Below, in pieces: positions 1,013 through 58,236 of a stretch of DNA of 64,000 bases. The notes under the pieces are model-generated. The model worked only from the letters and a program-made list of their open reading frames with translations. It was not told the origin of the DNA and ran no database searches. Origin of the DNA: an uncultured Gammaproteobacteria bacterium (GTDB lineage: Bacteria > Patescibacteriota > Patescibacteriia > 2-01-FULL-39-33). The position numbers and the translations under genes are program-made. The stretch lies in assembly GCA_964512625.1 (NCBI GenBank), contig CAZEKG010000001.1, positions 217,413-281,412 on the forward strand, given 5' to 3'. Position 1 is the first letter of the stretch. Each line of letters opens with the position of its first letter.

Positions 1013-3550
1013 TCATTTCTTGCCTTTCTTCGCCGTTAGTTTCTTCGCCTCGGCGATTATTTCTTTCGAAACATGACTAGGCAAATCAGCGACTTTTTCG
1101 ACGCAATGTCCGCCCGGATAAGCTTTAACCGCTTCACCACTCTTAGTCATACCCCAAGCTGAAACCATAACCCCTAAATCGCGCAGCTTATTATCCTCTT
1201 TTATATAAGCACTAAGATCGTCAACTTCACCATCCATAAAAGCCATAACCGCGCGAACCCTCGGCTTGGATTTTTTCTTTTTCCCAGCCTGAACCTCGTC
1301 ATTCAAATCAGCCTCAATTACTTCTCTAACTTTTACTAGGCCGAGATGCGCCGGCGTCCCGCCGCCGATATTAGACTCCAAGCCCTTCCAAACCGCGTAT
1401 TGCTCTTTCGGTCCCCAACTTGATCCGGAAGACTTAATAACGCCGGCCGAGCCGGCTTGAAATGCGGTTAAAGAAGATTTTACATCTAAAGGCGAAATCA
1501 GCTTGCCGGCTCGCTGAGCGATGCGAGTTTTTTCGGCAAAGGAATACAAAGCGTCTTGAAGAATAAAACAAGCAAGTTGCTGTTCGTCTTTCTTTGGCAA
1601 GCCGGAAGATTCGTCAATATAATTCATAGAACTACTGCGATCAACGACGAAATGAATATCCAACCCGCTGTAATCCTGGATCATTTTATTAGTCTTCGCT
1701 TCCATCGCATACCCCTCAGGGTCGTTCGAGCCAGTCCTAATATCCCGGCCAATCATCGTCCAGCTATCAGGCTCATCGCCTATTGACCTTTTAACCGGGC
1801 CTTTAGTCGTCGCTTTCGGGACTAGATTAGTCTCGACGATTTCTTGGAACTGCGTTCTTAATTTTTCTAAGACATTAGCATACTTGAGCCTAGCCTGCCT
1901 TATTTTTTCTCTTACTATCAAAGCTTCCTCGTAAGAACATTCTGCATCTTTTGCCCACTCCCTCGCCTCCCAATCTTTTTCCCTTTCCCGAGTCTCAGCT
2001 TCTTTTTCCGCTTCTTGCATTTTACGCTTCAAATCATCAAGCTGTTCCTCCGTCAATTCCGGCGCTTCCTGTTCGCCGAAGTCACCTTCTCCCGGCTCAT
2101 CCTCCGGCAGCTCATCAGGCATTTCTTCATCCGCGTTCGGATCGCCCTCCGGCGTTGCGTCGAAACGATGCCATTTTTTATCCTCAGTATTATATACCTC
2201 CGTCCAAGCGTGCCGATTGCCCGAATTCAACGATGCGGCGCCATTGCTATCCTTACTCTTGACATAATTGCCGGTCGCCAACCTGGCTTTCACTCCCGAA
2301 GCGGATAATAAGTTTATATAATATGCGTTAGCCACATCGCAATCGGCTTGGCGATGTTCCTCGATTCCCGCGAAATAGCCGACCGGATGATTCTGATAAA
2401 CCTTATTGAACGAGCTGTCATTAGAATAAGTCAAGTAATTCCTAACGAATCTTTTAAGCTTCCTAGCCTTAACTAAATTATCCGTCTCATTTTCTATTTC
2501 CGCGAGCGCTTTTCCGGCGTCAGCCCCCGCATAAGGCGATTCGACCGCTAAGTCATTTTCATTTACTTCTAGCCGTCTTTCGGCTATCGAGCTTTCCGCT
2601 TCGCCGATCATAACTGTAAAACTGATTGGGAATTTTTCCAAGCCTCGCGAATCGATAAGCCAATTGCCATTGCCATCAATTAAAAACTTTAGTTCATCGC
2701 TGGCTTTTACAGTCCTGATATCCGGACGATAGCCGTAAGGCAAAGGGAAATCAGCCAATCTTCCGCCATTAACTTTTCCGCGGAAAACCTTTTTTGAATC
2801 TTCTTTAAGCTCGATTTCCGGTCCAGCAGTCAGCTCGCCTCGTTCAGTCTTCCAACGGGAACCGCCGGCATGTTTATTATAAACATTTTCGCGATAATAG
2901 CCGCCAAAAAACGGATGAACTGAAAAATAACCCTTATTTTCTTCCCCTTCATTTTTCTCCATTTCATCCATAGAAGTATCCATATCATCTCGGCTATCGG
3001 GCGGCATTTCCTCGTTACCTTTTTTTTCCTGACTTTCTTCCTCAACTTTTTCTTCATCTCTTAATTTTCTTAAATCACTGCGATAAGCGTAGTTTAAAAG
3101 CCCGGCAATCTTTTTATTAAAATAATCGTTCCTAACGCTTGACTGAGTGTTAGGCGAGGTTAAGACCTGAAGAGCATTAACTCTTCCTTCCTCGGTTTCC
3201 ACTCCCCTCAATTCGCTTATAACATCTTCCCAGACTTTCGAAGGCGAATAATTGTCATCTTTGGCGGCAGCTAGCAACTCTCTGACTAATCCGTCATATT
3301 CGCTCAAACCGATATCCCTCTGGTTATAAGCCGCATCGCCATTTTTTAAAGATTCGGACGAGCTAAAAATCATCTTGTCCAGCTCCTTCTTAAAATGCCT
3401 TTCCGCCGGCGTGCCCCTTGATTGCCAATCGCGCTGAGCCTCGACATCCTCGGAAGTCCTTATCCGCTCACGCCAAAAACCGGAAGATTTTTTTATTTCT
3501 TCCGATCCATTTTCTAAAATATTAGCTTTATTTTTTTCAACACTGTCCAT
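1013..3550 (-). CDS. cytoplasmic transglutaminase-like cysteine protease domain + C-terminal von Willebrand factor A (vWA) domain protein
   Basis: Cys-His-Asp transglutaminase core (QADCDVANAYY...NRHAWTEVYN...WHRFDATP). vWA MIDAS motif DRSSSM plus GGGTPAHLG. A coiled-coil/acidic linker joins the domains. No signal peptide. Confidence 0.7.
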   Translation of the reverse strand: MDSVEKNKANILENGSEEIKKSSGFWRERIRTSEDVEAQRDWQSRGTPAERHFKKELDKMIFSSSESLKNGDAAYNQRDIGLSEYDGLVRELLAAAKDDNYSPSKVWEDVISELRGVETEEGRVNALQVLTSPNTQSSVRNDYFNKKIAGLLNYAYRSDLRKLRDEEKVEEESQEKKGNEEMPPDSRDDMDTSMDEMEKNEGEENKGYFSVHPFFGGYYRENVYNKHAGGSRWKTERGELTAGPEIELKEDSKKVFRGKVNGGRLADFPLPYGYRPDIRTVKASDELKFLIDGNGNWLIDSRGLEKFPISFTVMIGEAESSIAERRLEVNENDLAVESPYAGADAGKALAEIENETDNLVKARKLKRFVRNYLTYSNDSSFNKVYQNHPVGYFAGIEEHRQADCDVANAYYINLLSASGVKARLATGNYVKSKDSNGAASLNSGNRHAWTEVYNTEDKKWHRFDATPEGDPNADEEMPDELPEDEPGEGDFGEQEAPELTEEQLDDLKRKMQEAEKEAETREREKDWEAREWAKDAECSYEEALIVREKIRQARLKYANVLEKLRTQFQEIVETNLVPKATTKGPVKRSIGDEPDSWTMIGRDIRTGSNDPEGYAMEAKTNKMIQDYSGLDIHFVVDRSSSMNYIDESSGLPKKDEQQLACFILQDALYSFAEKTRIAQRAGKLISPLDVKSSLTAFQAGSAGVIKSSGSSWGPKEQYAVWKGLESNIGGGTPAHLGLVKVREVIEADLNDEVQAGKKKKSKPRVRAVMAFMDGEVDDLSAYIKEDNKLRDLGVMVSAWGMTKSGEAVKAYPGGHCVEKVADLPSHVSKEIIAEAKKLTAKKGKK

Positions 3551-3584
3551 AGGCTTTATAAAATCTTGATTATTTCATTCTTTA

Positions 3585-4199
3585 TTACACGCTTCTGGCG
3601 ATTTTCTCTAAAAAGCTTTTTACTGCTGTAAAGTCTATATTTCTCTGATGCTTGAATTTTATCGGTTCCTTATTAATATCTTTAAAATATACTAAACTTT
3701 TTAAGACAAGATTGATATCTAAGTCGGGAAACTTTTTACTAAACACAAGCAAGATTTGACTAATCGTCAAATCTTGAAAAATAAAATACAAGTCAACATA
3801 ATCCTTATTTGTCGCGCGACTGACGATAGCTGACAATTTCATGCAGGCGATATCGACAATAGAGGCAATATTTAAATTTTCTTCTTTAATCGTCGGACTG
3901 ACTAACTTATAAGGATAAGAGAAAAAACTGATTTTGATATTATTGTCAATAAATACAGTTAAAGTATCTTTTTCATCCTGAACCTTGACTACCCGATAAT
4001 CGGCAAAAATTTCCTTTACTTTTTTAAATAAAATAGCGGTATCAATCGACTTAGGAGAAAAGAAGTCAAAATCTATACTATCGCGATGCCCCAATTGCAA
4101 AGCCAAACCCGTACCGCCGGCCAGATAAAAATCGGCTTTGAAATTTTTTAACAACGGAAGTATTTGACGCCTTTTAGCGTCTAAGATATCATAGAACAT
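3585..4199 (-). CDS. nucleotidyltransferase, AbiEii/DUF1814-like (type IV toxin-antitoxin toxin family)
   Basis: N-terminal minimal-NTase motif LAGGTGLALQLGHRDSIDFDFF (GG[TS]...DxD), ~200 aa. Tightly linked to a small upstream ORF. Confidence 0.55.
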   Translation of the reverse strand: MFYDILDAKRRQILPLLKNFKADFYLAGGTGLALQLGHRDSIDFDFFSPKSIDTAILFKKVKEIFADYRVVKVQDEKDTLTVFIDNNIKISFFSYPYKLVSPTIKEENLNIASIVDIACMKLSAIVSRATNKDYVDLYFIFQDLTISQILLVFSKKFPDLDINLVLKSLVYFKDINKEPIKFKHQRNIDFTAVKSFLEKIARSV

Positions 4200-4208
4200 A
4201 AAATTTAA

Positions 4209-4478
4209 TTAAAAACGAGAACGAGTTAATTCTCTCTCATTAATATTTAAAATCAGCGACCAATAATGCAGCGACTTATCATTTAATTCTCCCTTAGCGC
4301 CGTAATTAATAACCGCCTTCTTAATGCTTGATTTGGGATAAAAATCGAATAGCCAATCAGTAGCTTTCTTGTCGCCGAAATTAAGCAAATTCAAGATTAT
4401 CCTGACCCTATCCTTTTTAAGGTCAAGCTTACTGAAATCATTGAACCAAAAATACTTTTTTATAAACTTTGGCGGCAT
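4209..4478 (-). CDS. hypothetical 89-aa protein, possible antitoxin/partner of the AbiEii-like NTase
   Basis: Co-directional ORF with a 10-bp gap to the NTase gene. I recognise no family. Confidence 0.4.
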   Translation of the reverse strand: MPPKFIKKYFWFNDFSKLDLKKDRVRIILNLLNFGDKKATDWLFDFYPKSSIKKAVINYGAKGELNDKSLHYWSLILNINERELTRSRF

Positions 4479-4525
4479 AATATTGCTAATTTCTCCCCTA
4501 ATTATATCACATTTTAAGATTCAAA

Positions 4526-5572
4526 TCAATCGCCCGCATACCCCTTAATTACACCTAGAACGGCGTCATATTCTTCGCTGGAACCGATAATCTCCCTGTA
4601 AGAGCATAAGCTGTCATAAAGATTATCATCAAAGCCGGACAATTTCTCATTAAGCTCCTTTTTAGCCTTTAAAACCGTTTTGGGCCTTGGCCAAACCTTC
4701 AAGCCGTTGGTTTGAAGCCCTAAAACGTCGATAACTCCTGGAAATTGGCAAATATCTATTTTAGACTCAGGGATTTCTAATCCCAGCCTCTCTTTAGTAA
4801 AAGAACGGATCATTTTAACCGACTTCTCCGCAACTGGCCGATTGCCAGCCAGAAAAAGCAAGTCATCATTATACCTGATATAATGCTTTATTTTCAATTC
4901 TTTCTTAATATGCCAATCAAGCTCGTTAAGATAAATATTGGCTAAGACCTGGCTAGTTAAGTTTCCTAAGGGCAACCCCTTGCCATTTTCGCCAAAACTG
5001 ACGATTACCTGGCTTATGATATTTGAAATCAACTCATTCTTAGTTCTCTTTCTTAAAATAGCATTTAAAATATTATGATCTATGTTGCTGAAATATTTTT
5101 TAACATCCATCTTAACGGCTAATGTCCGGCGGCTGCGATACAGCCGAAAACAATTGCCGATAAAATATTTCCTAGCTAAATGAAGTCCCTTATTCGGACG
5201 GGAAGCGTAGGAATGGAAGTAAAATATTTGATCATATTTATGAAAAAGATAATCGAAGATGATTTGATGGACGACCCTGTCCCTGACCGAGGCTACATAA
5301 ATATCACGCTTCTTCGGATCGTAAATCCTAAAATGCTGATAACCGCCATGGCGATAACGACCGCTTGCCAAGTCATGATATAATGAGTTTACTTCGCTCT
5401 CAAGATTAAGCCAAAACTCCCTAACTAGCCTTTGACGAAGTTTTCCGCGACGGAATTTTTCCCATTTCCAACATATATTTTCTTTACCAAATAATAATTC
5501 ATATTCTTCTATGAGTCTCCCCCCCCCCCCCGACTCTTTTAAAGCTTCCATTTTTTCACAAACTCCGCTCAT
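4526..5572 (-). CDS. diversity-generating retroelement (DGR) reverse transcriptase
   Basis: RT motifs: YIRYNDDLLFL (motif C, YxDD-like) and the DGR-typical LPLGNLTSQVLANIYL (I/LGxxxSQ). It sits immediately downstream of a TR that has a cognate VR. Confidence 0.9.
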   Translation of the reverse strand: MSGVCEKMEALKESGGGGRLIEEYELLFGKENICWKWEKFRRGKLRQRLVREFWLNLESEVNSLYHDLASGRYRHGGYQHFRIYDPKKRDIYVASVRDRVVHQIIFDYLFHKYDQIFYFHSYASRPNKGLHLARKYFIGNCFRLYRSRRTLAVKMDVKKYFSNIDHNILNAILRKRTKNELISNIISQVIVSFGENGKGLPLGNLTSQVLANIYLNELDWHIKKELKIKHYIRYNDDLLFLAGNRPVAEKSVKMIRSFTKERLGLEIPESKIDICQFPGVIDVLGLQTNGLKVWPRPKTVLKAKKELNEKLSGFDDNLYDSLCSYREIIGSSEEYDAVLGVIKGYAGD

Positions 5573-5975
5573 TTTAAAAAGTTATTTTCTATACCGCGAA
5601 ATACTTAAATTAACTAAAGACTTTCCTAAGGTTTACCGCTACGGCTTAGGAGAAAAAAGCCAAAACGCCATCTTAAGCATAATTGAAATTACTTCTCAGG
5701 CACTTTATAGCCGGCAACCATTAAAAGAGCCTTTGATACTAAAGCTTATCGGCATCATACAAACCTTGCAGCTTTTTATCCGCTTGGCTTATGACGAAGA
5801 ACTGATAAGCGAGCGGAACTTTTTTACCCTAAGCGATCAAGTAATCGAGCTAAACAAAATGGCGGCGGGCTGGCTAACCTCCGTTCGCTCGCCATCCCAG
5901 CCTAAAGTCGAACCCTCGCCGAGAAACGGAAGCCGCTGTTCGAATTCGCATCCACATCATCCCTGTTCAAGTTGA
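5511..5975 (+). CDS. avd: Avd-like accessory protein (four-helix-bundle / 23S rRNA-IVS protein family). Start uncertain; the 3' end reads through the TR.
   Basis: DFPKVYRYGLGEKSQNAILSIIEITSQA...LILKLIGIIQTLQLFIRLAYDEELISERNFFTLSDQVIELNKMAAGWL resembles the FPKxE+YGLxSQ+RRAAVSI...SLxELxxQL...GYI four-helix-bundle pattern of DGR Avd proteins. It lies on the strand opposite to the RT, TR and target. Confidence 0.45.
   Translation: MSLPPPPDSFKASIFSQTPLILKSYFLYREILKLTKDFPKVYRYGLGEKSQNAILSIIEITSQALYSRQPLKEPLILKLIGIIQTLQLFIRLAYDEELISERNFFTLSDQVIELNKMAAGWLTSVRSPSQPKVEPSPRNGSRCSNSHPHHPCSS
5519..5531. repeat. 13-nt homopolymeric C tract (G13 on the coding strand of the RT gene, codons 14-18)
   Basis: Direct read: tctc + c x13 + gactc. 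It encodes the SGGGG stretch of the RT. Confidence 0.9.
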
Positions 5976-6034
5976 GCTGGGAATCGTCGGAATTCCAATT
6001 GCCGTTCGGCACATTGCCGTCAGAAGCGACCGGC
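5914..6034 (-). repeat. DGR template repeat (TR), 121 bp
   Basis: Aligns to 6381-6501 with 15 mismatches. Fourteen are at positions where the TR minus strand has A. In the VR frame the TR carries nine AAT/AAC codons. Confidence 0.85.
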
Positions 6035-6232
6035 CTCCGTTTCTTATCGTCCATAATCTCTTAACCCCTAAACCTGCCGAAGCAGACCTATCTAAAAACT
6101 TCCCTTGTTGACGCGTGAGGATATGTGAATCAAAGCGCTAAGAAACGCCTCCATTGCCCTTTAGCAATGCTCTGCCATAAACTCTTACGCTACCCGGCAA
6201 ACCAATTGCTTTTTTATTGGAAGTCGCTCAAA

Positions 6233-6252
6233 CCTGCCTGCCGGCAGGCAGG
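6233..6252. repeat. 20-bp perfect GC-rich palindrome (cctgcctgccggcaggcagg) between the VR and TR
   Basis: The sequence is its own reverse complement. It lies 111 nt 3' of the target-gene stop. Confidence 0.7.
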
Positions 6253-6362
6253 TACTTCGTCCGCTTAGCGGCGGGGTCAACTTCATTAAAAAACAAGGTT
6301 ATATTAGCCGGCTTTAAATTCTAAATTTAAAAATAAATAATAATCAAACTGAATTATAAAAC

Positions 6363-9300
6363 TTAAATCTTGCGAGGGATCCTCACCGAGAAACGGAAGC
6401 CGCTGCGCGAATGCGCATCCACAACATCCCCGTCCAAGACGAGCTGGGAAGCGTCGGAAAACCAAATGCCGTCCGGCACACTGCCGTCAGAAGCGACCGG
6501 CAGGTCAATAAAGCGGGAAAAAGTTCCGCCAGTGCGCCTATAATCATCAAGCGGTACGAGATCGTTTAATGCTTTGGCTTCTAAAACGCGATCTGTAAAA
6601 CGATTTTGTAGGATAAGATACTCGGCAATAGAAGTGATATTGACCATTTCTAAGGTTATGCCTTCATTCAAATCAATAAACTCTTGCTTGATCTTTTCGA
6701 ATTCCGCTTTTTGAGCGCCTAAGGCTTTATTCTTCGTTCTCTCCTCAGGCGATTGAGAGGGAGTAATTAAGGAAATATATGGAGATTCGGGAATGCTTAG
6801 GACTGCCTGGAATAGGAGTTCCGGATCTTCGCCGGCCTTTAAAAAAGGGGCGATTTCTGCTTTTAACTTATCCTTTTCCTTTATAGTCATATCAGGCTTC
6901 CCGGCGATCTTCTCCATAAAAGAAATGAGACTATCGATATAATCCCAAAGATAAGTATCGGCGACTTGACCTTCCTGCCCATCTTTCTTAAATCTCGGCT
7001 TAAGTTTTTCTATAGCCGTTTTAAGGCCTTTTATTTGAGCTAAACGCCCAGGCACGAAAAGCGGGATCTCGCCCAATTCCATTCGCGATCCGATAAGCTC
7101 GATATCTTCCTCGCTAAGATTAAAATCTTCCATATTTTCCGGCAAATGTCCGGCCATATTCCTATCGAGCCAAAAAGTTACTTCTTGATAGGCCCGCCTG
7201 TCTTTAGATAATATTTCCTGGAGATCGACTTCTAAATCCTGTTGTTCCGGATTATTCGCTTGATCTATTATTCCCGCTTCCTTAAAAGCTTCATGATAAG
7301 GATTTTTAGCGTTGAAAACAGTAAACTGGTAATTGCCATGCAGCCTTTCCAGCTCGTCAAGACTGTCGATTATTTCCCGATCGCCTTTTCCCGACTCGAC
7401 TAGCCATTTTCCTTTAAGCTCAGGAAACTTAGCGCACTCTTTAATTAAGCCGACAAAAGTAAAAGTCAAATCTTCTCCTGCCTTGTCCGGAGAAACATAC
7501 CGCCCTTTCGGCGCGGCCACCTTATCGAGCGATACTTTGACCCTTTTCTTGCCTCCATAATCGATGAATTCATCGGCGTATTCGGGGGCAGCCGGCGTAT
7601 TATCTTTTATTTCCGCTTTTCTTGGCACTCTGGGAGATAACTGCGCCAATTCCTTATCCGTTATGATATCTAAGCTTATCTTAGGGCCGGCCAAGGGTTC
7701 CAGCTTCGCATTCCCGCCGCCGGCAATAAGTCCATATTCAGCAAAAAGCTTAATGTAAAGATCCTTGTCTTCGAGATAATCATCAGCCGTAAAAGCGGTT
7801 TCCAGCCATTCGACTAATTTTTCGGAGAGAAATGATTTTAAAGACTTACCCTCTCGAGCCAATAGGCGGTATTCTTTTAACCAAAGAAAAATATCGCCCG
7901 GAGTTAGGACGCTGCCCGAAATCAGCGCTTCCGGATTGCCTCGGCTCAAGATATTATCTCGTCCGTAAAGGTTTTCGTAAGCTTGGGAAAGCGCTTGGGC
8001 TAAGCGCCAAAGTTCGCCGCCGGCTTTAGGATCGCCATCGAGAACTTCTTCCGTAATATTCTTACCGTTTTCTTCCTTATGTTTTTCATTATATATCGGC
8101 CCTAATTCCGCCTTGTTCGCCTGAATACGATTAGAATCATCCATCAGGGCGACTAAAAAGGTTTCGAACAATTCCGGGTTTTCGGCTGACTGAGGGAAAT
8201 ACTCGACCGGAATCATTTTCATTTTTCTTTGGATTTCCGGCGTATAGCTGGTGCGGCGGAATCTTGAGCCAGCCGGATTCTGGGCGCCGAGCACAATTGC
8301 TTTGGATAAGACAAGGTCTTTCGGATCGGCGCCGTTAGTAGAATAGCCTGTCGGCTCTCCGGAGCGAAGCCGATCGCACAAAGTCGCTAAAGTCCCGATA
8401 TCTTCCGCTTTATTCGCCTCATCGATAAAAACCGCCAAGCCCTGATGTTCGGGAGATGCTTGATCAGCTGTCTTTTTTCCAGTCAAACCGTATAAGACCG
8501 GGCCGTAATCCGTTCCGCCCCTAAGATTCTTATCGGCTAAAAGCTCTCTATCAACTTTCATTCTTTCATCAGCTTCCTTAATAATCGGCGCCTCGCCGGT
8601 AAAAAGCTGGGCGACAGCCTTGGCTAAAGTCGTCTTACCGGTACCCGATTGCCCTTCCAGGACGACCATTCTTAAAGTATTGGCCGAAGCGACAGCATCT
8701 TCTATCGCTTCCAATATCTTATGCCGGCTTTTAGTCCACATAAAATGATCCGGCCCGTCCAATTGTTCTTTTAACTCTTTAAGCTCGCTGAAAACCGCCC
8801 TGGCTGCCAAGTCCGGATTTTTAGCTAAAAGCTCAGCTTGCCTAGCTTTATTTTCCGCCATGGCCGAGGAAGCAATAGCTAATTCTTCCAATACCGCGCC
8901 TTTTTCTCGGCCCTGGCGCAAACCCTCAAAACGCTTCTTTTGAAGCTGGGCTTCCTCTTCTTCCCAAATATCCTCGTCATTCCTAAGCTCTTGATATTTC
9001 GGCCAATTGCCGTTAACCGAAGCCCATTGCTCGGCATACTTTTTCATCCCTTGCTCATAAACTAATCTTGTTTCTTCATCGCTGTACATCTCTTTAAGTA
9101 AAGAGAGAATTCTGGCGTTTTCCAGACGAGATTTGAATTCCTGAGTTAAGGGATTTTCGTCATCGAATATATCCATGAGAGCGAGCGACTGGGAATCTCC
9201 AGACTCTCTTTTTTCTTTAATATACTCAAGCCAAGAGTCCTTAAAGCTCTGCCAGAAACTCCAAAGAGCTTCCGCTTTCGCTTCCGGGCCTTTTTCTCTA

Positions 9301-9428
9301 AGCTTTTTTAGGGAAAACTCCCTGATTTTTTTCTCTTTCGGAGATTGTTCTTCTTTAGCAGGAGTGATTTCCTGAGCTGTCTTCTCAAGCGAGAAAATCG
9401 ATTTTATTTTCGGGTTTTTTTCCGGCAT
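6363..9428 (-). CDS. DGR target protein: MoxR-like AAA+ ATPase with C-terminal variable (CLec/FGE-like) domain; no signal peptide
   Basis: Walker A VLEGQSGTGKTTLAKAV, Walker B/sensor VFIDEANKAEDIG (the DEaNrA pattern of MoxR/AAA_5), and a coiled-coil N-terminus. The C-terminus ...DGSVPDGIWFSDASQLVLDGDVVDAHSRSGFRFSVR is encoded by the VR. Confidence 0.8.
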   Translation of the reverse strand: MPEKNPKIKSIFSLEKTAQEITPAKEEQSPKEKKIREFSLKKLREKGPEAKAEALWSFWQSFKDSWLEYIKEKRESGDSQSLALMDIFDDENPLTQEFKSRLENARILSLLKEMYSDEETRLVYEQGMKKYAEQWASVNGNWPKYQELRNDEDIWEEEEAQLQKKRFEGLRQGREKGAVLEELAIASSAMAENKARQAELLAKNPDLAARAVFSELKELKEQLDGPDHFMWTKSRHKILEAIEDAVASANTLRMVVLEGQSGTGKTTLAKAVAQLFTGEAPIIKEADERMKVDRELLADKNLRGGTDYGPVLYGLTGKKTADQASPEHQGLAVFIDEANKAEDIGTLATLCDRLRSGEPTGYSTNGADPKDLVLSKAIVLGAQNPAGSRFRRTSYTPEIQRKMKMIPVEYFPQSAENPELFETFLVALMDDSNRIQANKAELGPIYNEKHKEENGKNITEEVLDGDPKAGGELWRLAQALSQAYENLYGRDNILSRGNPEALISGSVLTPGDIFLWLKEYRLLAREGKSLKSFLSEKLVEWLETAFTADDYLEDKDLYIKLFAEYGLIAGGGNAKLEPLAGPKISLDIITDKELAQLSPRVPRKAEIKDNTPAAPEYADEFIDYGGKKRVKVSLDKVAAPKGRYVSPDKAGEDLTFTFVGLIKECAKFPELKGKWLVESGKGDREIIDSLDELERLHGNYQFTVFNAKNPYHEAFKEAGIIDQANNPEQQDLEVDLQEILSKDRRAYQEVTFWLDRNMAGHLPENMEDFNLSEEDIELIGSRMELGEIPLFVPGRLAQIKGLKTAIEKLKPRFKKDGQEGQVADTYLWDYIDSLISFMEKIAGKPDMTIKEKDKLKAEIAPFLKAGEDPELLFQAVLSIPESPYISLITPSQSPEERTKNKALGAQKAEFEKIKQEFIDLNEGITLEMVNITSIAEYLILQNRFTDRVLEAKALNDLVPLDDYRRTGGTFSRFIDLPVASDGSVPDGIWFSDASQLVLDGDVVDAHSRSGFRFSVRIPRKI
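6381..6501 (-). repeat. DGR variable repeat (VR), 121 bp, covering the last ~40 codons of the target gene
   Basis: See TR. The VR ends 15 nt before the stop codon. A single non-A mismatch (TR C vs VR T) lies 5 nt from the 3' end, in an IMH-like position. Confidence 0.85.
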
Positions 9429-9530: not shown

Positions 9531-11180
9531 TTATTGATTCAGCCGATTCTTCCCCGCCTCGACAAGCCCGGCAAAAAGCGGATGAGGCCGGAGAGGCCGA
9601 GACTTGAATTCCGGATGGAATTGAACGCCAACGAAAAATGGATGAACACCCTTAGGTAATTCGACGATCTCAACTAATTGCCCATCCGGCGAAGTCCCGG
9701 CGATAACCAAGCCGTTACTCTTCGCCATTTCCAGATAATCATTATTGAATTCATACCTATGGCGATGGCGCTCTATAATATTTTTATCTTTATAAAGACT
9801 AAAAGAAATCGACTCTTCGCTAAGAACGCAAGGATAAGCTCCTAAGCGCATCGTATTACCATATTGATTCTTCGCCAGCCTCTCTGCCTGCTCCGGCATG
9901 ATATGAATAACGGGATTAGTAGTCTCTTTATTTATTTCGGTCGTATTAGCATCTTCAAGACCGGCCGTATGGCGCATAAATTCAATCGTCGCCAATTGCA
10001 TACCGTAACAAAGCCCGAGATAAGGAATATTATTTTCCCGCGCGAACTTAATAGCCAAGATCTTCCCCTCTACTCCCCGCGAACCAAAGCCGCCAGGAAC
10101 GACTAAACAATGATAATTATTCAACTCACTTACTTTTTCCGGCTCCTTCTCATAGATATCTGAATTGATCCATTCGATTTCCGGCTGAACCGATTGATGC
10201 CAACAAGCGTATTTCAAGCTTTCAATGACTGAGATATAAGAATCAGAAAGAACGAAGTCCCCCGTTTCAAAATATTTTCCGATAATGCCTATTTTCAGTT
10301 TCGAACCTTGGTTTTTAGTTTTCTCAACAAACTCCCGCCACTGATTTCCATCCTTAAGCTTCGGCTCCAAGCCGAGATCAGCCAGGATCTTATCCGATAA
10401 GCCTTCTTTCTCAAAATTAACCGGAATATCATAAACGCTCTCTACATCGGGCGCAGAAATAATATGGTCTTTTTTAACATTACAAAATAAAGCCAACTTC
10501 TCCTTCCGAGGCTCATCGATCGGATGAGTCGAACGGCCAAGAATGAAATCAGGCTGAATACCGACATAGTTAAGCTCCCGTGAAGCCATTTGGGTTGGCT
10601 TCGTCTTCATCTCGCCGATTTTTGATGGTACAGGAAGATAACTAACAAGAACGAAAAGCACATCATTAGGCTCCCTAAGATGCATCATCCTAGCCGCTTC
10701 TAAGAATAAAGCGTTTTGATATTCGCCGACCGTTCCGCCGATTTCAATCAAGGTGATATCAGCCTCGGCTTTTTTCGAGGCCCGCTCAATCCTTTCCATG
10801 ATTTCATAAGGAATATGAGGAACCGCCTCGACGCATTTTCCGCCATACTCAAGATTGCGCTCCTTATTAATAACCGAAAGATAAACGCGTCCGGTTGTCA
10901 TATAATTATCGCGGAAAATATTAACATCGAGAAAACGTTCGTAATTGCCAATATCCTGATCAGTTTCATCGCCGTCTTCCGTGACAAAAACCTCCCCATG
11001 CTCGACCGGATTCATAGTCCCAGCATCAACATTAAGATAAGGATCTATTTTAACCGCCGTTACTTTAAAACCTCTTTCTTCAAGTAGCCGGCCAATCGAA
11101 GCGCAAGCAATTCCCTTGCCGACTCCTGACATAACCCCGCCGACGATAAAAATATATTTCTTTTTTTTCTCACCTTCCAT
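9531..11180 (-). CDS. pyrG: CTP synthase
   Basis: N-terminal KYIFIVGGVMSGVGKGI...; C-terminal glutamine amidotransferase domain; full length 549 aa. Confidence 0.95.
   Translation of the reverse strand: MEGEKKKKYIFIVGGVMSGVGKGIACASIGRLLEERGFKVTAVKIDPYLNVDAGTMNPVEHGEVFVTEDGDETDQDIGNYERFLDVNIFRDNYMTTGRVYLSVINKERNLEYGGKCVEAVPHIPYEIMERIERASKKAEADITLIEIGGTVGEYQNALFLEAARMMHLREPNDVLFVLVSYLPVPSKIGEMKTKPTQMASRELNYVGIQPDFILGRSTHPIDEPRKEKLALFCNVKKDHIISAPDVESVYDIPVNFEKEGLSDKILADLGLEPKLKDGNQWREFVEKTKNQGSKLKIGIIGKYFETGDFVLSDSYISVIESLKYACWHQSVQPEIEWINSDIYEKEPEKVSELNNYHCLVVPGGFGSRGVEGKILAIKFARENNIPYLGLCYGMQLATIEFMRHTAGLEDANTTEINKETTNPVIHIMPEQAERLAKNQYGNTMRLGAYPCVLSEESISFSLYKDKNIIERHRHRYEFNNDYLEMAKSNGLVIAGTSPDGQLVEIVELPKGVHPFFVGVQFHPEFKSRPLRPHPLFAGLVEAGKNRLNQ
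9553..9591 (+). repeat. 39-bp direct repeat, copy 2 (inside the pyrG 3' end; encodes RPHPLFAGLVEAG)
   Basis: Exact match to 905-943. Confidence 0.8.
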
Positions 11181-11800: not shown

Positions 11801-13075
11801 CTATCTTAATAATTCTAAAGCCTTATCCATTTGGGGATCGCGGTCCTTATTAAAGTCTTCCTCAGTCAATTTAACCTCCAAATCAGGACTGATTCCCTGC
11901 TCATCGATCGATCGTCCTTTTGGTGTAAACCATTTCGCGATCGTCAACTTAAGGCTTGAGCCGTCAGGCAAGCTTTCCAATTCCTGGACTGAGCCCTTGC
12001 CGAAAGATTTTTCTCCGACGATCTTCGCCAAGGCGTAATCCTGAAGAGCGCCAGCAACAATTTCCGAGGCTGAAGCGCTGCCACCATTGATTAAAACTAT
12101 TGTTTGATAGCCATTAAGCCTGGTAGCGGTCGTCGGCGCATGAGCGATCTCGCTGCCGTCTCTTAATCTTTCCTTAACAACCGGCTGACCAGCAACCCAC
12201 TCGCCGGAAATATCGATCGCCGACTCAAGATAACCTCCCGGATTATTCCTTAAATCAAAAACTAATTTTTTAACGCCTCTTGATCTCATCTCATTTATCG
12301 CTTGATCGACTAAAGGATAAGTATCGTCGTTGAATTGGCGGACTTTAACGATTGCCACATCGCCCTTGAATTCCCAACTAACGCTTTTAACATTAATTGC
12401 ATCCCTGACGATCTCAAAATCTTTCGGCTGAGTAAAGCCATCCCTAAAAATAGATAAAATGACTTTCGTCCCTTTTTGTCCGCGAATTAGCTTAACCGCC
12501 GCATCTGTACTCATACCTTCAGTACTAGTACCGTTTATCTTGACGATAATATCTTTCGGCTTTAGGCCTGCTTTAATAGCCGGCGTATCAGGTAGCGGGG
12601 AAACAATAACCAAAACTCCCGCCTTAGAAGAAATCTCGGCGCCAATACCTTCGAAATTTCCTTTTAAATCTTCCTGGAATTGAGCGGAATCAGTCGGCGT
12701 CATAAAAACCGAATAAGGGTCATTTAATGAAGCGACGATTCCGGAAACCGCGCCGTAAAATAATTGGGTATCTGGAACATTCTTATCGTAATACTTATCC
12801 TGGACTAATTTCCAGACTTGCCAAAATAGATCAAAATTAGCGTCCTTAACTAAATACTCGGGCACTTTGCCGTCTTGCTTGATAACACTACTAGAAGAAC
12901 TGGCGACAGACGGATCAGCACCCTTAATAACCTCTTGGCCTCCGGTCGAACCGAAAACATCCGCCTGACCTCCGGCGTAAACCCCGGCCGTAAACGATAG
13001 TAAAATAGCCATAGTTGCCAGCCAAACGCTGACCCGGCTTTTAATTATTCTTTGCTTTAATGATTGGAAATCCAT
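11801..13075 (-). CDS. carboxy-terminal processing protease (S41 family, PDZ domain), secreted
   Basis: N-terminal signal anchor, PDZ region, S41 core (...GGSASASEIVAGALQD...). Confidence 0.85.
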   Translation of the reverse strand: MDFQSLKQRIIKSRVSVWLATMAILLSFTAGVYAGGQADVFGSTGGQEVIKGADPSVASSSSSVIKQDGKVPEYLVKDANFDLFWQVWKLVQDKYYDKNVPDTQLFYGAVSGIVASLNDPYSVFMTPTDSAQFQEDLKGNFEGIGAEISSKAGVLVIVSPLPDTPAIKAGLKPKDIIVKINGTSTEGMSTDAAVKLIRGQKGTKVILSIFRDGFTQPKDFEIVRDAINVKSVSWEFKGDVAIVKVRQFNDDTYPLVDQAINEMRSRGVKKLVFDLRNNPGGYLESAIDISGEWVAGQPVVKERLRDGSEIAHAPTTATRLNGYQTIVLINGGSASASEIVAGALQDYALAKIVGEKSFGKGSVQELESLPDGSSLKLTIAKWFTPKGRSIDEQGISPDLEVKLTEEDFNKDRDPQMDKALELLR

Positions 13076-15939: not shown

Positions 15940-18021
15940 TTAATATTGCCAAACGAGATTACTGCCAAACGCCTTCGGTTCGCCTAAAAGATTATTCAAT
16001 TCAAGGATCGCTTGGGGCTTAGCCTTATCAGCTTCGATGACTATATACAACTTAGCGGCTTTAGCCGTTTTTAACGCCTCGCTCAAAAGTTCCTTGGATG
16101 GCTTGCTTAAAATGGAATTATAGAAACCAACCCTTTCCGGCTGTTGGTAATTATAAGCGACCGGAAAATTGCCAAGAACTATCTCTTTGGCCGAATAAGC
16201 TTCTAAAGCTAAAAGCGGCCAAGTATTAGCTAAGACCGCCGAACCTTTCGGGTCTTGTTTCGCCTGATCGAAGACATAAGCCATGGCTCGAGACTCGTCA
16301 GCAGTTACCATAGCATTCATAATCGGACCAGTCGCAAAAATGTAAGTAGAAATCAAAGCCAGGATAAAAGACGAACTGATTAATAAATATTTTTTCCTTA
16401 TCTCTGGAAAATTGGAAACAATAATCATAACTAGAAAGACAACTAAGAAAACATTCAATCTTCTTGATAGATGATTTATGCCTTGGATAAAAAAGCCGGA
16501 TAAAAAGTAATCAAGAATCAGGATAACAGCTATGAAAGCCAAAAGTCGATCCGCTTGCCTCTTCGAATTTAAAGATTTTAATAGCGAGTAGCCTAAGAAA
16601 AAGATAAATAAAATTAGAATCGCCTTAGATAATATATGCTCTCCCTTAAAATCGAAAGGCATGAAATTACCGAACTCGAAAAACAGCCAATCACCTTTAG
16701 AAATAAGTTTTTCAAACATCTCCAAGCTCGGCAAGTTAAGATTGAGAGAGCTACTGAAACTAAAAAGCTCGACTAAAAATAAAGGAATAATCATAAGGAT
16801 CGAAAACCAGCCTCTTTTATTTTTTTTCGACAGCCAATAAACCAATCCGAGCAAGAGAGCTAAAAGAAAAGCTAAGGAATAGCCGAAATACATCATAACG
16901 GAAAAGAATAATATGAGCCAGCCCCGGCGTCTAGTCGGGTTATTAAGATATCCAGACCAAAGCAAGATTAAACTTAGTAGGCTAAGGACTCCGAAACCGG
17001 CTGGCAAAGTCTGGGCGCCGTAATATTGCAATAAATAAAAACTGTTGCTTAGAGCTGAAAGCAATAAAGCCTTGCCGTTGTCCTTAAAAAGATTAAGCCC
17101 GATAAGATAAAAAAGGAGCGGCGCAAAAATAGACCAGACTCCGAAAATAAAATATTTATTGATCACCTCAAAAGTCCAACCGGTCAATCGATGGATTAAA
17201 ACCGCCCAAGACCACTCAAAGCCGTAAGACAGTTTAGTTTCGGAAATTAAAACCGTAGGAACGCTAAGAGGGCCGATCTTAGACAACCAAAGATTAGGAG
17301 TCAGTAAAGTCGGCTGATATTCCATTTCCTTATCGACTCGTATCTCCGAGCCGATATGGCGCCAAGAGTCCCCGCCGAAGCCGTTGCTATAAACTAATAA
17401 ATAGCCATGAATAGCTAAACTGGCTAAAACTATCAAGACTAGAGCCTTATTATCTTTCTTAAAAGAGAAGATAAAAGAGATAAATAAGATAAGCGCCACT
17501 AAGATTAAATAAGGCCAAAACAAAACCTGCCAAGGAGAAACAATATAGCGCTCCGTAACCGCCGAAAAGATAAAATAATAAGCCGCTAAAGCCAGGATTG
17601 AAGCTAAACCGATAACCCAATAAGCCGCGCGGCCGCTCTTACTAAAAAATATTTTTTCCTCAACCGCCTTAGACTTTTTAAAATAAGCATCAAAGAAATA
17701 AACCTCTAAGCCGGTAAGAGCCATCGCCGAAACTAAAGAAAGATCACTAAGCTTGAACCAAGAAGTGAATATATTAGCAATATAGCCGAATAATAAAAAA
17801 TTAAAAAATATGACTGTCGGCCATTTAAGGTTTTCAGGCAAATAAAAAGCTTTAACTAAGAATCGCGACATTATTCCAGCTGTAATTAAAAACCAAACAA
17901 TGAAAATAAAGCTCTTAAGCCAAAACCAGCCGACTAAGCCAAAAGCAAAATACTCGGACGCCGAGAGGGCCAGTCCGAGAAGAGTTAAATGAAAAGAATT
18001 TATTTTTTTTAGATCAAGCAT
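15940..18021 (-). CDS. large polytopic integral membrane protein (possible GT-C-type glycosyltransferase) with C-terminal extracytoplasmic domain
   Basis: More than 12 predicted hydrophobic helices; I recognise no catalytic motif. Confidence 0.5.
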   Translation of the reverse strand: MLDLKKINSFHLTLLGLALSASEYFAFGLVGWFWLKSFIFIVWFLITAGIMSRFLVKAFYLPENLKWPTVIFFNFLLFGYIANIFTSWFKLSDLSLVSAMALTGLEVYFFDAYFKKSKAVEEKIFFSKSGRAAYWVIGLASILALAAYYFIFSAVTERYIVSPWQVLFWPYLILVALILFISFIFSFKKDNKALVLIVLASLAIHGYLLVYSNGFGGDSWRHIGSEIRVDKEMEYQPTLLTPNLWLSKIGPLSVPTVLISETKLSYGFEWSWAVLIHRLTGWTFEVINKYFIFGVWSIFAPLLFYLIGLNLFKDNGKALLLSALSNSFYLLQYYGAQTLPAGFGVLSLLSLILLWSGYLNNPTRRRGWLILFFSVMMYFGYSLAFLLALLLGLVYWLSKKNKRGWFSILMIIPLFLVELFSFSSSLNLNLPSLEMFEKLISKGDWLFFEFGNFMPFDFKGEHILSKAILILFIFFLGYSLLKSLNSKRQADRLLAFIAVILILDYFLSGFFIQGINHLSRRLNVFLVVFLVMIIVSNFPEIRKKYLLISSSFILALISTYIFATGPIMNAMVTADESRAMAYVFDQAKQDPKGSAVLANTWPLLALEAYSAKEIVLGNFPVAYNYQQPERVGFYNSILSKPSKELLSEALKTAKAAKLYIVIEADKAKPQAILELNNLLGEPKAFGSNLVWQY

Positions 18022-18024
18022 AAA

Positions 18025-18900
18025 TTAAATACCAAAAAACTTCCTCGCGTTTTCAGTTGTCGCCTTAGAAACAACTTCTAAGTCCTCGTTTTTCAGCTCG
18101 GCTATTTTCTTAGCGATATATTTCACATAAGCGGGCTCGTTGCGACGGCCGCGATAAGGCTCGGGAGTTAAAAATGGCGCATCAGTCTCAACCAATATCC
18201 GACTTAGAGGGACCGCTTTAACCGCCAATTGGACTTCCGAGGCTTTTTTACCGAAAGTGATAATGCCGGTAAAGCCAACATAAAAACCCAGCTCAATAAA
18301 ACGCTCCGCCTGATCCGCGCGGCCGCCGAAACAATGAATAACGGCCTTAATCTTCCGACCGACGGCGATTTCCTTTTTTAGGATATCTAGCATCTCATCA
18401 TAGGCCGCATAAGGCTCATCTTTCGAACCGCGGCAATGGAGGATTAAGGGCAATTCCAGTTTTTCGGCTAAAGCGATAAAATCAAGGAAGATTTTTTGTT
18501 GTTTTGCTTTTCTCACTAGCACTTCTTCCTCACTCTTGCCCTCAAAAAAATAATAATCCAGCCCGACTTCGCCGATCGCGACGACTTTTTTAGAAGAGCG
18601 GGCTAATTTTTCATACAACGAAAAATCAGGCTCCTCGCCCGCATGCTTAATGATTTTCTTTTCGCCGTTTGCTTCCGTAAATTCTTCCGTCTCGGAAAAA
18701 AGATGAATCGGATGAAGCCCGATCGAGGCGTATACCCCCTGGGGGTATAGCTCGGCCGCTTCGATAGCTCGCTCGGAAGTAGAAAATTGAGCGCCGACAT
18801 TTATCAGCCAGACATCTTCCTTAAGCGTCCGATCAATAACTTCCCGCCAATCATCCTTAAAAGCAAAAAAGTCGAGATGGCAATGAGAGTCAATCAGCAT
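18025..18900 (-). CDS. tatD: TatD-family metal-dependent hydrolase/DNase
   Basis: MLIDSHCHLDF...GLHPIHL...EVGLDYY. The probable start is the internal Met at 18900, which removes the overlap with cvpA. The ORF-track start is 18981. Confidence 0.8.
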   Translation of the reverse strand: MLIDSHCHLDFFAFKDDWREVIDRTLKEDVWLINVGAQFSTSERAIEAAELYPQGVYASIGLHPIHLFSETEEFTEANGEKKIIKHAGEEPDFSLYEKLARSSKKVVAIGEVGLDYYFFEGKSEEEVLVRKAKQQKIFLDFIALAEKLELPLILHCRGSKDEPYAAYDEMLDILKKEIAVGRKIKAVIHCFGGRADQAERFIELGFYVGFTGIITFGKKASEVQLAVKAVPLSRILVETDAPFLTPEPYRGRRNEPAYVKYIAKKIAELKNEDLEVVSKATTENARKFFGI

Positions 18901-18904
18901 AAAT

Positions 18905-19438
18905 TTATAACAAAGTCTTAATCGTCTTAAAGGCTTCCGGAACGATATTAGGCCAATAATTATTGAACTGACTAATAACAATACTAAGCCAAGAAGCCAG
19001 CTTAGATCCGGAAATAAAAACGGCTACAGCCGGAATCGCGCCCTCAAAAGCGCCAATCGCTGCTAAGGAGAAACTAAGGATGATAATGCCTTCGATAAGC
19101 CCGAGAATCAAGCCGCCGAAGCGATTGATAGTTCCTAAGAAAGGAATGATGGCGATAAGCTTGAAAATCTTATTGATAAAATAAAAAAGTAAGCCGATTA
19201 ACCTGTTAGCAATGGTAAAAATAAGAATGAAAGCAACTACTTTAGCCCAGCCGGCATTGCCAAGTAAGATCGGAGTTAAAAAATCAGCCACCTTCAAGTA
19301 ATAAAGGCCGGCCAATTTAAGGCCAAGAACTAGGCCGATCAAAGCTCCTATTCCCTGGATCAAGCCGAGAAAGAAACCCATTGCACCGAAAAAGGCCAGG
19401 ACGGCGATAATTATGACATCAAGCAAAGTAAAAGTCAT
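18905..19438 (-). CDS. cvpA: CvpA-family membrane protein
   Basis: Four TM helices, ~177 aa, MTFTLLDVIIIAVLAFFGAMGFFLG pattern. Confidence 0.65.
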   Translation of the reverse strand: MTFTLLDVIIIAVLAFFGAMGFFLGLIQGIGALIGLVLGLKLAGLYYLKVADFLTPILLGNAGWAKVVAFILIFTIANRLIGLLFYFINKIFKLIAIIPFLGTINRFGGLILGLIEGIIILSFSLAAIGAFEGAIPAVAVFISGSKLASWLSIVISQFNNYWPNIVPEAFKTIKTLL

Positions 19439-19507
19439 ATCGTAAAATTATTTTCCATGTTTTCCTTGTTACGTAACATGCTACGCAACAAATAAAACTT
19501 TTTTATT

Positions 19508-21013: not shown

Positions 21014-21052
21014 AAGACTCGTTTAAATATTATTTAGATCTTTTCATCGCTA

Positions 21053-21751
21053 TTATCTCTTACCTTCGACGACAACGACGAATTCGCCCTTAGTCACGCC
21101 TTCTTTCAACTTAGCGATTACCGTCTTCAGATCGCCGCGATAAACCGTTTCGAATTTTTTTGTCAGTTCTCGACAAACGACGATCCGGCGATGTTTATCA
21201 GCCCCGTCGGGCATCATCTCCTCTAACTTTACCAAAGACTTCATAATCCGATGAGTCGATTCATAAAAAACCGCCGTTTCTTCGCTTTCGATTATCCGTT
21301 TCAACATCGTTTCCTTGCCTTTTTTGTGGGGTAAGAAACCGAGGAATAAAAAGCGATCCGTCGGCAAGCCGGAAATGGAAAGGGCCGAGATAATGGCCGA
21401 AGGTCCGGGAATCGCTACAACTTCCAGCTCTTCGCCAAACTTCTTAATCGCCTCGGCGATAAAAAGATTGCCCGGATCAGATATTCCGGGAGTTCCGGCA
21501 TCAGTAATCAAAGCCATCTCCCCCGCTTCTTTCATTTTATCAAGCAAGAAGCCGACTTTATCCGACGAACTGTGCTGATGATAAGAAACGGTTTTAGTTT
21601 TTATTTCATAAGCCGCTAAAAGCCGACTAGAAACGCGCGTATCTTCACAAGCAATTAAAGGCACAGACTTAAGTATTTCCAAAGCCCGTAAAGTGATATC
21701 GCTTAAATTTCCCAGTGGCGTCGCCACGATATATAGCTTAATCATGGGCAA
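21053..21751 (-). CDS. rsmI: 16S rRNA (cytidine1402-2'-O)-methyltransferase
   Basis: LYIVATPLGNLSDITLRALEILKSVPLIACEDTR tetrapyrrole-methylase fold. Confidence 0.85.
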   Translation of the reverse strand: MPMIKLYIVATPLGNLSDITLRALEILKSVPLIACEDTRVSSRLLAAYEIKTKTVSYHQHSSSDKVGFLLDKMKEAGEMALITDAGTPGISDPGNLFIAEAIKKFGEELEVVAIPGPSAIISALSISGLPTDRFLFLGFLPHKKGKETMLKRIIESEETAVFYESTHRIMKSLVKLEEMMPDGADKHRRIVVCRELTKKFETVYRGDLKTVIAKLKEGVTKGEFVVVVEGKR

Positions 21752-57713: not shown

Positions 57714-58079
57714 TTAAAACCCGACTGCGCGCAAATGGAATTCCTCAATCACTTTTCTTACGGCCTGAGGCGTCTTGTCGATATGGATAACTCCCAACTC
57801 TTCCATCTCGGACGATCTTACGGAAGAAATCGAAAAAAGACTAAGAGTAGTCTTATTCTCGACAAGCTCTCTAGCTACTTCCAGGCCATCGTTACCGTGG
57901 CCAAGATCGTTATCTAAAAACACCGCTACTAAGTTGGGATGTTTATCTATTTCCGCCAAAACCTCCTCTTTTGATCGGCACCTTTTGATCAAGACCCTTT
58001 CGTCCCTACTGAACAAAAGAGCAAATGACGTCACTATCGGTTCATAGTCATCGACGAGCAAGAACTTAATTAAAGGCAT
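57714..58079 (-). CDS. single-domain response regulator (CheY-like receiver)
   Basis: LLVDDYEPIV...LVAVFLDNDLG...: acidic pocket and the phospho-acceptor Asp context. Confidence 0.7.
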   Translation of the reverse strand: MPLIKFLLVDDYEPIVTSFALLFSRDERVLIKRCRSKEEVLAEIDKHPNLVAVFLDNDLGHGNDGLEVARELVENKTTLSLFSISSVRSSEMEELGVIHIDKTPQAVRKVIEEFHLRAVGF

Positions 58080-58236
58080 TGATCGAATCCCCCTTGCCTA
58101 TTTTTTCCGACTAAAGAACGAGAATTTCATTTTATCAAAAATATTAAGATAAGTCGAAATATAAAAATTAAAGAAAATAAAGACCGGACAAGCATATTAG
58201 CTCATCCGGTTGATAATTTAGATTCTCTTTTCCGCC

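Follow-up and report, generated by a model that had tools for sequence, protein, structure and literature searches.

A predicted soluble MoxR–vWA protein pair with a dedicated diversity-generating retroelement in CPR/Patescibacteria

We describe a diversity-generating retroelement (DGR) and the two large proteins encoded on either side of it in a 64,000-nt stretch of contig CAZEKG010000001.1 (assembly GCA_964512625.1, positions 217,413 to 281,412 of the forward strand), which as a whole is referred to as the window and whose own positions are used throughout. The DGR target, a MoxR-class AAA+ ATPase ending in a lectin-type domain, and its partner, a transglutaminase (TGase)-like protein carrying a vWA domain, were found side by side in dozens of genomes belonging to the candidate phyla radiation (CPR, Patescibacteria). 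We are highly confident of this architecture, namely a soluble MoxR-vWA machine made of two proteins, which is particular to CPR/Patescibacteria and is furnished with a dedicated DGR, and a role of the pair in sensing or conflict is plausible by analogy with known systems.

The minus strand of the window holds, in this order, pyrG, an open reading frame (ORF) for the 1021-residue target (6363-9428), the reverse transcriptase (RT) ORF, ORFs of 89 and 204 residues, and the 845-residue ORF of the partner (1013-3550). An earlier note on this DNA, prepared from its letters and ORF translations, had placed the partner in the same block as the target; the partner gene indeed lies downstream on the same strand, but is not directly adjacent, being separated from the target by the DGR cassette together with a pair of AbiEii and DUF6922 genes (3585-4478).

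The template repeat (TR, 5914-6034) and the variable repeat (VR, 6381-6501), both on the minus strand, form a 121-nt direct repeat of 88% identity, in which 14 of the 15 mismatches fall on TR adenines in a TR containing 21% A (binomial p = 5e-9). All 14 adenine-site mismatches were located at codon positions 1 or 2. The AAY-codon-rich TR encodes the peptide PVASDGNVPNGNWNSDDSQLNLNRDDVDANSNSGFRFSA and the VR encodes PVASDGSVPDGIWFSDASQLVLDGDVVDAHSRSGFRFSV, the two differing by eleven recoded codons (target residues 983-1008), chiefly AAY. The RT (4526-5572, minus strand, 348 residues) matched RVT_1 in the Pfam/NCBIfam search (E 1e-18), and the motifs LGNLTSQ and YNDD were present in its translation. 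The [I/L]GxxxSQ motif is a mark of DGR-type RTs. In addition, a 154-residue ORF for an Avd-like four-helix-bundle accessory protein (5511-5975, plus strand) matched bAvd (E 3.4e-8) and DivGenRetAVD (E 1.5e-8), each below the curated cutoff. With the adenine-biased TR/VR pair, the RT and Avd all present, the window holds a complete DGR, in which Avd is inverted relative to the RT. The ORF coordinates and the DGR reported in the earlier note were reproduced.

As listed, the Avd ORF overlaps the RT start by approximately 60 nt and enters the TR by approximately 60 nt on the opposite strand. Its true start and end are uncertain owing to these overlaps with the RT start and the 3' part of the TR, and, because Avd ends right at the TR end in related loci, the window Avd may carry a C-terminal read-through extension. 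Direct reading of the sequence further identified a GC-rich perfect 22-nt palindrome at 6232-6253, ACCTGCCTGCCGGCAGGCAGGT, which separates the stop codon of the target from the TR and may be a DGR-homing-associated inverted repeat or a terminator.

The target was resolved into a helical N-terminal region (residues ~30-224), an AAA+ core with lid (~250-565), the segment LSPRVPR (598-602), a small beta domain (~606-687), an alpha/beta domain (~686-836), and a C-type-lectin-like domain (~875-1021). The alpha/beta part of the AAA+ core (residues ~250-410; 8199-8681, minus strand) contains the Walker motifs GQSGTGKT (residues 259-266) and VFIDEANKA (333-341), and matched Pfam AAA_5 over residues 255-401 (E 1.9e-6; 28.4 bits, with the cutoff at 22). 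When 33 and 62 homologues were aligned, G259, G262, G264 and K265 of Walker A, D336 and E337 of Walker B, N384 of sensor 1, R401, and R475 were invariant or nearly so. When the profile of the ATPase family was compared with the PDB, the best match was Midasin (E 8e-22, summed over several AAA modules), followed by NorQ (1e-6), and then CbbQ, McrB, and dynein.

An AlphaFold2 model of residues 1-689 (pLDDT 90.4, pTM 0.86) was consistent with these assignments. The model shows a helix-2 beta-hairpin insert (helix 292-297, strands 298-300 and 306-308, helix 310-316), R401 in the arginine-finger position directly before strand 5 (403-407), a helical lid (472-564), and the small beta domain (606-687). 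Its top Foldseek match in the PDB was NorQ bound to the NorD vWA domain (E 1.4e-6, TM 0.72 normalised on NorQ), followed by dynein, McrB, and Lon. As the sequence, motif and predicted-fold evidence agree, the assignment of the target to the MoxR class, already proposed in the earlier note, is supported; its catalytic residues are intact, and the helix-2 insert and the genomic linkage to a vWA partner are as in that class (AAA_5, helix-2-insert clade). The coiled-coil N-terminus described in the same note was recovered only as long helices, over residues 30-224 of the model.

Ahead of the AAA+ core, the two alignments revealed a conserved aromatic/arginine motif, F229-x-W231-x-x-S234-R235, which did not match the WxhapG/PsWRxa patterns published for the region N-terminal to the MoxR domain in the ternary conflict systems considered below (PMC7159879). 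LSPRVPR (about 7623-7637) is near-invariant at the boundary between the ATPase and the C-terminal part and is retained in DGR-less forms; in loci where the two parts are split (L016, L017, and L019) it goes with the variable module, and it is missing from the second VR protein of locus L010. This segment may be where another protein docks or cuts, the transglutaminase-like peptidase being one candidate.

Neither a transmembrane-grade segment nor a hydrophobic N-terminus was detected in the target or the partner (maximum Kyte-Doolittle 19-residue means 1.21 and 0.67, respectively), nor in 43 ATPase homologues (maximum 1.35). Both proteins are hence predicted to be soluble, and the lack of signal peptides and transmembrane segments asserted in the earlier note withstood this check, which had been fixed beforehand.

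Residues 660-1021 of the target gave no sequence match in Pfam or the PDB. A model of the C-terminal module built from a 34-sequence alignment (pLDDT 91.8, pTM 0.89) begins with the alpha/beta domain (~686-836), after which comes a domain of beta-alpha-alpha-beta4 topology (~875-1021; 6366-6806, minus strand), the last three strands of which carry the VR. Structure comparison of the latter domain returned PvdO (6.1), PorK (5.9), SUMF2 (5.8), and OvoA/EgtB, together with the DGR variable proteins TvpA (5.7), Mtd (4.5) and TaqVP (4.3) and dozens of classical lectins. According to the model, the domain holding the VR is a divergent C-type-lectin fold, as the earlier note had anticipated in calling it lectin- or FGE-like, and the eleven recoded codons would fall in its surface loops and strands.

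The partner consists of a conserved N-terminal region, a transglutaminase-like core, a linker that is first acidic and then helical, and a C-terminal vWA domain ending in a conserved basic tail. The core (residues 351-465; 2156-2500, minus strand) matched Pfam Transglut_core (E 4.4e-11; 43.5 bits, with the cutoff at 23), and its putative triad, C404, H447, and D464, was invariant among 25 homologues. In the same alignment, D637 and S641 of the MIDAS DxSxS motif were invariant and S639 near-invariant, and the GGGTP segment, with its threonine, and D773-G774 were conserved. Although the vWA domain of the window partner itself (residues ~625-845; 1016-1678, minus strand) remained below the Pfam thresholds, its assignment is supported by the homologues and the conserved motifs: eight partner homologues have precomputed Pfam VWA or VWA_2 matches, and the family profile matched the solved vWA domains of PTMP1 (1.6e-6), TRAP, and the anthrax receptor. 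From its sequence, the partner is a transglutaminase-like Cys-His-Asp domain joined to a vWA domain with a complete MIDAS, its catalytic residues being intact, in good agreement with the earlier note.

To place the pair in a comparative frame, relatives of the partner were collected from one genome per species, which yielded 60 loci. Their hosts were mainly metagenome-assembled genomes of CPR/Patescibacteria (Magasanik-, Doudna-, Uhr-, Kaiser-, Moran-, Falkow-, Berkel-, Levy-, Peregrini-, and Gracilibacteria); a minority carried other bin labels (uncultured Gammaproteobacteria, Bdellovibrionales, and Methylomirabilis), which we judged to be mis-binned. Linkage was assessed in 62 non-redundant loci by searching six-frame ORFs with profiles of the window proteins and counting ATPase homologues of at least 500 residues. 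The ATPase gene adjoined the TGase-vWA gene in about 43 of these 62, with or without a DGR, and most of the unlinked loci were contigs ending at the gene or distant homologues of ~1100 residues. The linkage is tight and ancient across many CPR lineages, and the pairing pointed out in the earlier note recurs in dozens of CPR genomes. With this, each of the three conditions that the earlier note had named as refuting it was checked, and none was found to hold.

Two gene orders were observed. In the order found in the window, ATPase - TR - Avd (inverted) - RT - TGase-vWA, the distance from the RT stop to the TGase-vWA start is 5 nt or less, or the two overlap; in the other, TGase-vWA - ATPase - [TR - Avd - RT], the gap between TGase-vWA and ATPase is typically 20 nt or less. 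Reverse look-up from ATPase homologues gave a TGase-VWA_2 gene 10 nt downstream (P0004), ATPase - RT - TGase (P0036), and TGase - ATPase - Avd - RT - DUF6922 - AbiEii (P0057). No third conserved gene was detected when ORFs within 6 kb were clustered over 57 loci: only four families recurred (TGase-vWA, ATPase, RT, and Avd), the remaining clusters near the module being antisense shadow ORFs or local genes.

As to the retroelement, RT homologues were present in 27 related loci, Avd homologues, equally inverted, in 26, and adenine-biased TR/VR pairs in about 25; over 32 TR-VR pairs, 508 of 539 mismatches were at TR adenines. The VR was invariably located at the 3' end of its gene, which was either that of the ATPase or a smaller one encoding the C-terminal module only, and never in the vWA protein. 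These placements were made by TR/VR mapping; a narrow hidden Markov model of the lectin domain, built on the window subfamily, was too specific for divergent C-termini and also matched TR pseudo-ORFs. In locus L006 (GCA_001777655.1, Doudnabacteria), a run of N at about 8175-8190 lies exactly within the VR of the ATPase gene, an assembly effect to be expected of a site that is hypervariable in the population.

When 1.84 billion representative proteins were searched exhaustively with phmmer for homologues of the target, just 206 relatives were recovered (E ≤ 1e-3), many of them stand-alone copies of the C-terminal module; a word-index search returned 3-5, even with a 33-sequence profile.

Natural variants separate the parts of the machine. 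In the split loci (L016, L017, L019, and L020), the ATPase (~555 residues) and the variable module (~360 residues, two paralogues with a VR each) are encoded by separate genes, L017 and L019 having a 555-residue ATPase and two 361-residue VR proteins. In four others (L039, L040, L045, and L052), a small VR protein is followed by Avd-RT-TGase-vWA-ATPase, with an ATPase of ~770 residues. The occurrence of split forms shows that the lectin module works in trans. Moreover, about 15 pairs consist of a ~750-residue ATPase without the lectin module and have no DGR on the contig. Decay of the RT was also noted, as an 82-residue remnant in L002/L009 (8774-9112) and as two-piece RT ORFs in L039, L040, and L049; as the ATPase and TGase-vWA genes are intact beside the decayed RTs, the pair seems to outlive its DGR. 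Separately, locus L068 holds a second DGR at 17847-21634, approximately 500 bp downstream of its ATPase-RT-TGase module, composed of a 659-residue protein, Avd, and RT, with a DDE transposase upstream.

Taken together with the analogies considered below, these features can be accommodated in a mechanism that begins at the TR. Adenine-directed mutagenic retrohoming, proceeding from the TR through RT and Avd to the VR, has rewritten eleven codons of the lectin module. The resulting hypervariable tips, displayed on a ring that the ATPase would form, would bind a ligand inside the cell that changes and that most plausibly is a phage protein or one from another invader or a host. By analogy with NorQ-NorD, CbbQ-CbbO, RavA-ViaA, and midasin, the ring would engage the vWA domain of the partner and pull on its charged linker, and ATP-driven remodelling would couple ligand binding to, or gate, the transglutaminase-like domain, leading to cleavage or cross-linking of a substrate. 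The module as a whole would be a diversified sensor, an AAA+ switch, and a thiol-peptidase effector inside the cell rather than a surface adhesin. We put this sensor-switch-effector function at a little under an even chance, and regard the explanation in its entirety, architecture and function as worded here, as somewhat favoured.

Several observations weigh against this interpretation. The cytoplasmic location is derived solely from hydropathy and the requirement for ATP, and CPR bacteria could use unconventional export. Roughly one in three ATPase/TGase-vWA pairs lacks a DGR on the contig at hand, and diversification is accordingly not obligatory for the machine. One ATPase homologue, P0080, had no TGase gene in its available flanks. 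Finally, PADLOC gave no specific defence-family match for either large protein, with none at all for the partner and only weak matches at the P-loop level for the target (best E 5e-5).

The alternative that survives best, although we consider it unlikely, is that the pair is the cargo of a mobile element and serves that element, for instance by excluding rival elements or phages or through addiction, instead of being owned by the host. It draws on the flanks of the module. A direct repeat of 42-46 nt (899-943 and 9546-9591) brackets the entire 8.6-kb block and duplicates the 3' end of pyrG; the right copy falls in the codons with which the intact pyrG ends (9531-11180, minus strand), and the left copy is followed by what appears to be the displaced original pyrG tail and a hairpin. 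In L020, an analogous 60-nt repeat of an L28-like (rpmB-like) gene (5146-5205 and 12567-12626) surrounds the module. A DDE transposase adjoins one related locus. The arrangement looks like the insertion of an accessory island. Against cargo in the service of an element, no recombinase, integrase, transposase, replication, or structural gene was found inside the 8.6-kb block, and a search of metagenome contigs for an empty pyrG site or near-identical pyrG ends gave 0 matches in a collection that did not contain the source genome. Furthermore, 2.9 million viral contigs contained no relatives of either protein within the pattern-limited sensitivity of that search; on this ground, a phage-borne origin was set aside.

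Toxin-antitoxin (TA)/Abi cassettes inside the module also speak for the cargo alternative. In the window, an AbiEii-family nucleotidyltransferase (3585-4199, minus strand, 204 residues; Pfam AbiEii E 6.5e-13, PADLOC AbiEii E 1.3e-8), an Abi/TA toxin family, lies between the RT and the partner gene and is paired with a small DUF6922 protein (4209-4478, minus strand, 89 residues; Pfam E 5e-10). AbiEii with DUF6922 was observed in or beside the module, at varying positions, in four independent loci (window 3585-4478; L002/L009, 9030-9997; L013, 7241-8112; L072, 12679-13591), and a HicAB cassette was seen at the module in L070 (3437-3924). Such cassettes could be either addiction modules of the mobile block or accessory effectors.

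Slightly less probable is a housekeeping role, in which the pair would be a MoxR-vWA chaperone for one fixed complex, like NorQD, CbbQO, or RavA-ViaA, and the DGR module a minor add-on. The DGR-less pairs, the ~750-residue ATPases without a lectin module, and the fact that the closest solved relatives are maturation chaperones all fit this idea, but the patchy distribution, the varied sites (pyrG, rpmB, dnaX, and groEL neighbourhoods), and the direct repeats around the module in two genomes do not, and no conserved client gene was found nearby. In addition, the DGR is nested inside the pair, with stops and starts that overlap, and a hypervariable tip would be ill-suited to a single fixed client.

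Least probable of all, and improbable in our judgement, is a tool for host attachment in episymbiosis, exported non-classically so that the lectin tip binds the host surface and the variable protein is anchored or cross-linked by the transglutaminase-like domain: DGRs of CPR/DPANN organisms are usually credited with such a role, CPR bacteria being largely episymbionts and DGR-enriched (PMC8144416), with the host-interaction idea of Paul 2017 available as relayed by Dore 2024 (PMC10907252), and lectin-fold VR domains are classical surface binders, vWA domains and transglutaminases are often extracellular, and adhesins were among the PDB vWA matches, but the target, the partner, and the 43 ATPase homologues lack signal peptides and transmembrane segments, the invariant catalytic residues of the ATPase imply that it must have access to ATP of the cytoplasm, the MoxR chaperones that are its closest structural relatives act there too, and no secretion-system gene is conserved in the neighbourhood.

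Returning to the intracellular sensor-switch-effector interpretation, its consequences can be stated at two levels. The present locus and roughly 45 relatives give an otherwise unexplained class of CPR targets a defined architecture, a MoxR ATPase with a lectin fold, and a partner that looks obligate, in which a vWA handle bears a transglutaminase-like enzyme. The split and DGR-less variants dissect the system naturally, and two or three recombinant proteins would suffice to put its role to the test. Should the sensor-switch-effector function hold, DGR-programmed intracellular recognition would extend to minimal, non-multicellular cells, and the locus would also offer a compact two-gene scaffold for engineering diversified intracellular binders with an enzymatic output. 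A further-reaching proposal, which we consider doubtful, is that the commonest DGR targets of CPR bacteria are the sensor arm of a self-contained, immune-like intracellular machine with anticipatory, antibody-like recognition, in which hypervariable lectin tips on a ring of MoxR ATPases would recognise invader proteins and the vWA/MIDAS handle would switch on an enzyme that cleaves or cross-links the bound target. Were it true, recognition of this kind, coupled to an effector, would occur in ultra-small unicellular episymbionts, and the proposed link of such systems with multicellularity would be broken.

Elsewhere in the window, the region 58000-62000 has a GC content of 0.50-0.52, compared with ~0.40 in the rest. 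Two ORFs there (58237-59334 and 60345-61934) encode immunoglobulin domains of the eukaryotic type (Ig_3, I-set) along with TSP3 repeats of bacterial type, and may be surface adhesins or horizontally acquired genes. Two further, very large ORFs, of 1797 residues (45604-50997) and 800 residues (41969-44371), have no Pfam match and lie beside a GT4 glycosyltransferase.

Among known systems, the target class closest to the present one has been described from CPR bacteria, which are enriched in DGRs and among the richest organisms in them (PMC8144416). Fusions of a C-type lectin domain with an AAA ATPase (CLec-AAA) are the commonest DGR target of these bacteria according to Paul et al. 2017 as summarised in PMC10907252, and Dore et al. 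2024 suggest that the ATPase transduces signals sensed by the C-terminus (PMC10907252). Wu et al. 2018 matched the CPR 'UVR4' targets to the Midasin AAA domain, with P-loop targets forming their category g1 (PMC5758913), and Roux et al. 2021 reported CPR DGR targets without transmembrane segments or known domains, whose genuine non-membrane status 'remains to be established' (PMC8144416). The rarity implied by the earlier note is not upheld by these reports of CLec-AAA fusions and Midasin-type AAA targets. A CPR host, a Midasin/AAA_5-type ATPase followed by a C-terminal VR, and an Avd inverted relative to the RT are shared features, and the window target very probably belongs to this class as matched to its published descriptions. 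In contrast to the present analysis, that literature treats the target alone, and Wu et al. chose no VR fold among lectin, immunoglobulin, and other folds (PMC5758913). In the literature accessible to search, where Paul 2017 is represented second-hand, we found no mention of a conserved TGase-vWA partner, of split ATPase/lectin versions, or of DGR-less pairs. The lectin-fold assignment for the Midasin/AAA-type VR class of CPR bacteria, and the binary ATPase/TGase-vWA module as the conserved context of their targets, with its split and DGR-less forms, hence appear to be unreported in the literature searched, whereas the ATPase-lectin fusion itself and the idea of DGR-tuned MoxR-vWA systems are not new.

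The NorQ-NorD, CbbQ-CbbO, and RavA-ViaA pairs resemble the present one in that NorQ is the top structural match and the adjacent gene encodes a C-terminal vWA/MIDAS domain after a charged linker; in NorQD, a finger of the vWA domain reaches into the pore of the ring, and the partner's linker is twisted by the ATPase (PMC13036017, PMC9976466), the ring probably pulling on its vWA partner (PMC13036017). Those ATPases, however, are of ~260-500 residues, lack a ligand-binding appendage, and serve one fixed client, whereas the target has a 225-residue helical N-terminus and a C-terminal extension of ~450 residues ending in a hypervariable lectin fold, and its vWA partner carries an enzyme domain. 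Midasin/Rea1, the top sequence-profile match, likewise unites modules of AAA_5 type and a MIDAS domain, the latter docking onto the ring, but is a single chain of ~4900 residues with six AAA modules and its own MIDAS, and has no lectin domain, transglutaminase, or DGR. The STAND NTPase-CLec targets of cyanobacteria and multicellular proteobacteria (PMC10907252) follow the same logic, an NTPase inside the cell whose C-terminal lectin domain is diversified by a DGR, and have been proposed as antigen sensors; they differ in their STAND/NACHT rather than MoxR AAA+ NTPase, in their TIR and caspase-like effectors, and in their hosts.

The MoxR-vWA-VMAP ternary conflict systems of Kaur et al. 2020 (PMC7159879) are similar in co-encoding a MoxR-class AAA+ ATPase and a vWA protein, in having a DGR diversify an FGE/lectin-type domain of one component (PMC7159879; PMC10907252), in their peptidase-type effector, and in the predicted cytoplasmic location of their proteins. 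The earlier note had read the locus as a compact instance of these systems, a view that our results do not bear out. In those systems, the vWA protein has the variable domain fused to it, and here that domain is on the ATPase or stand-alone; there, the third protein VMAP is defining, and here a third conserved gene is lacking. Since these two defining features, the VMAP component and a variable domain on the vWA protein, are absent, membership in the ternary family was rejected. Moreover, transglutaminase-like peptidases are rare in the systems of Kaur et al., where they are on VMAP, CPR genomes being outside their statistics (PMC7159879), whereas the peptidase-like domain here is on the vWA protein. 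VMAP systems are enriched in multicellular or aggregating bacteria, a preference not seen here, with most of the 60 loci coming from ultra-small CPR bacteria, whose RTs form a separate DGR clade. The locus is thus a binary variant, in which the MoxR ATPase carries the variable tip and the vWA protein the enzyme, outside the VMAP ternary family.

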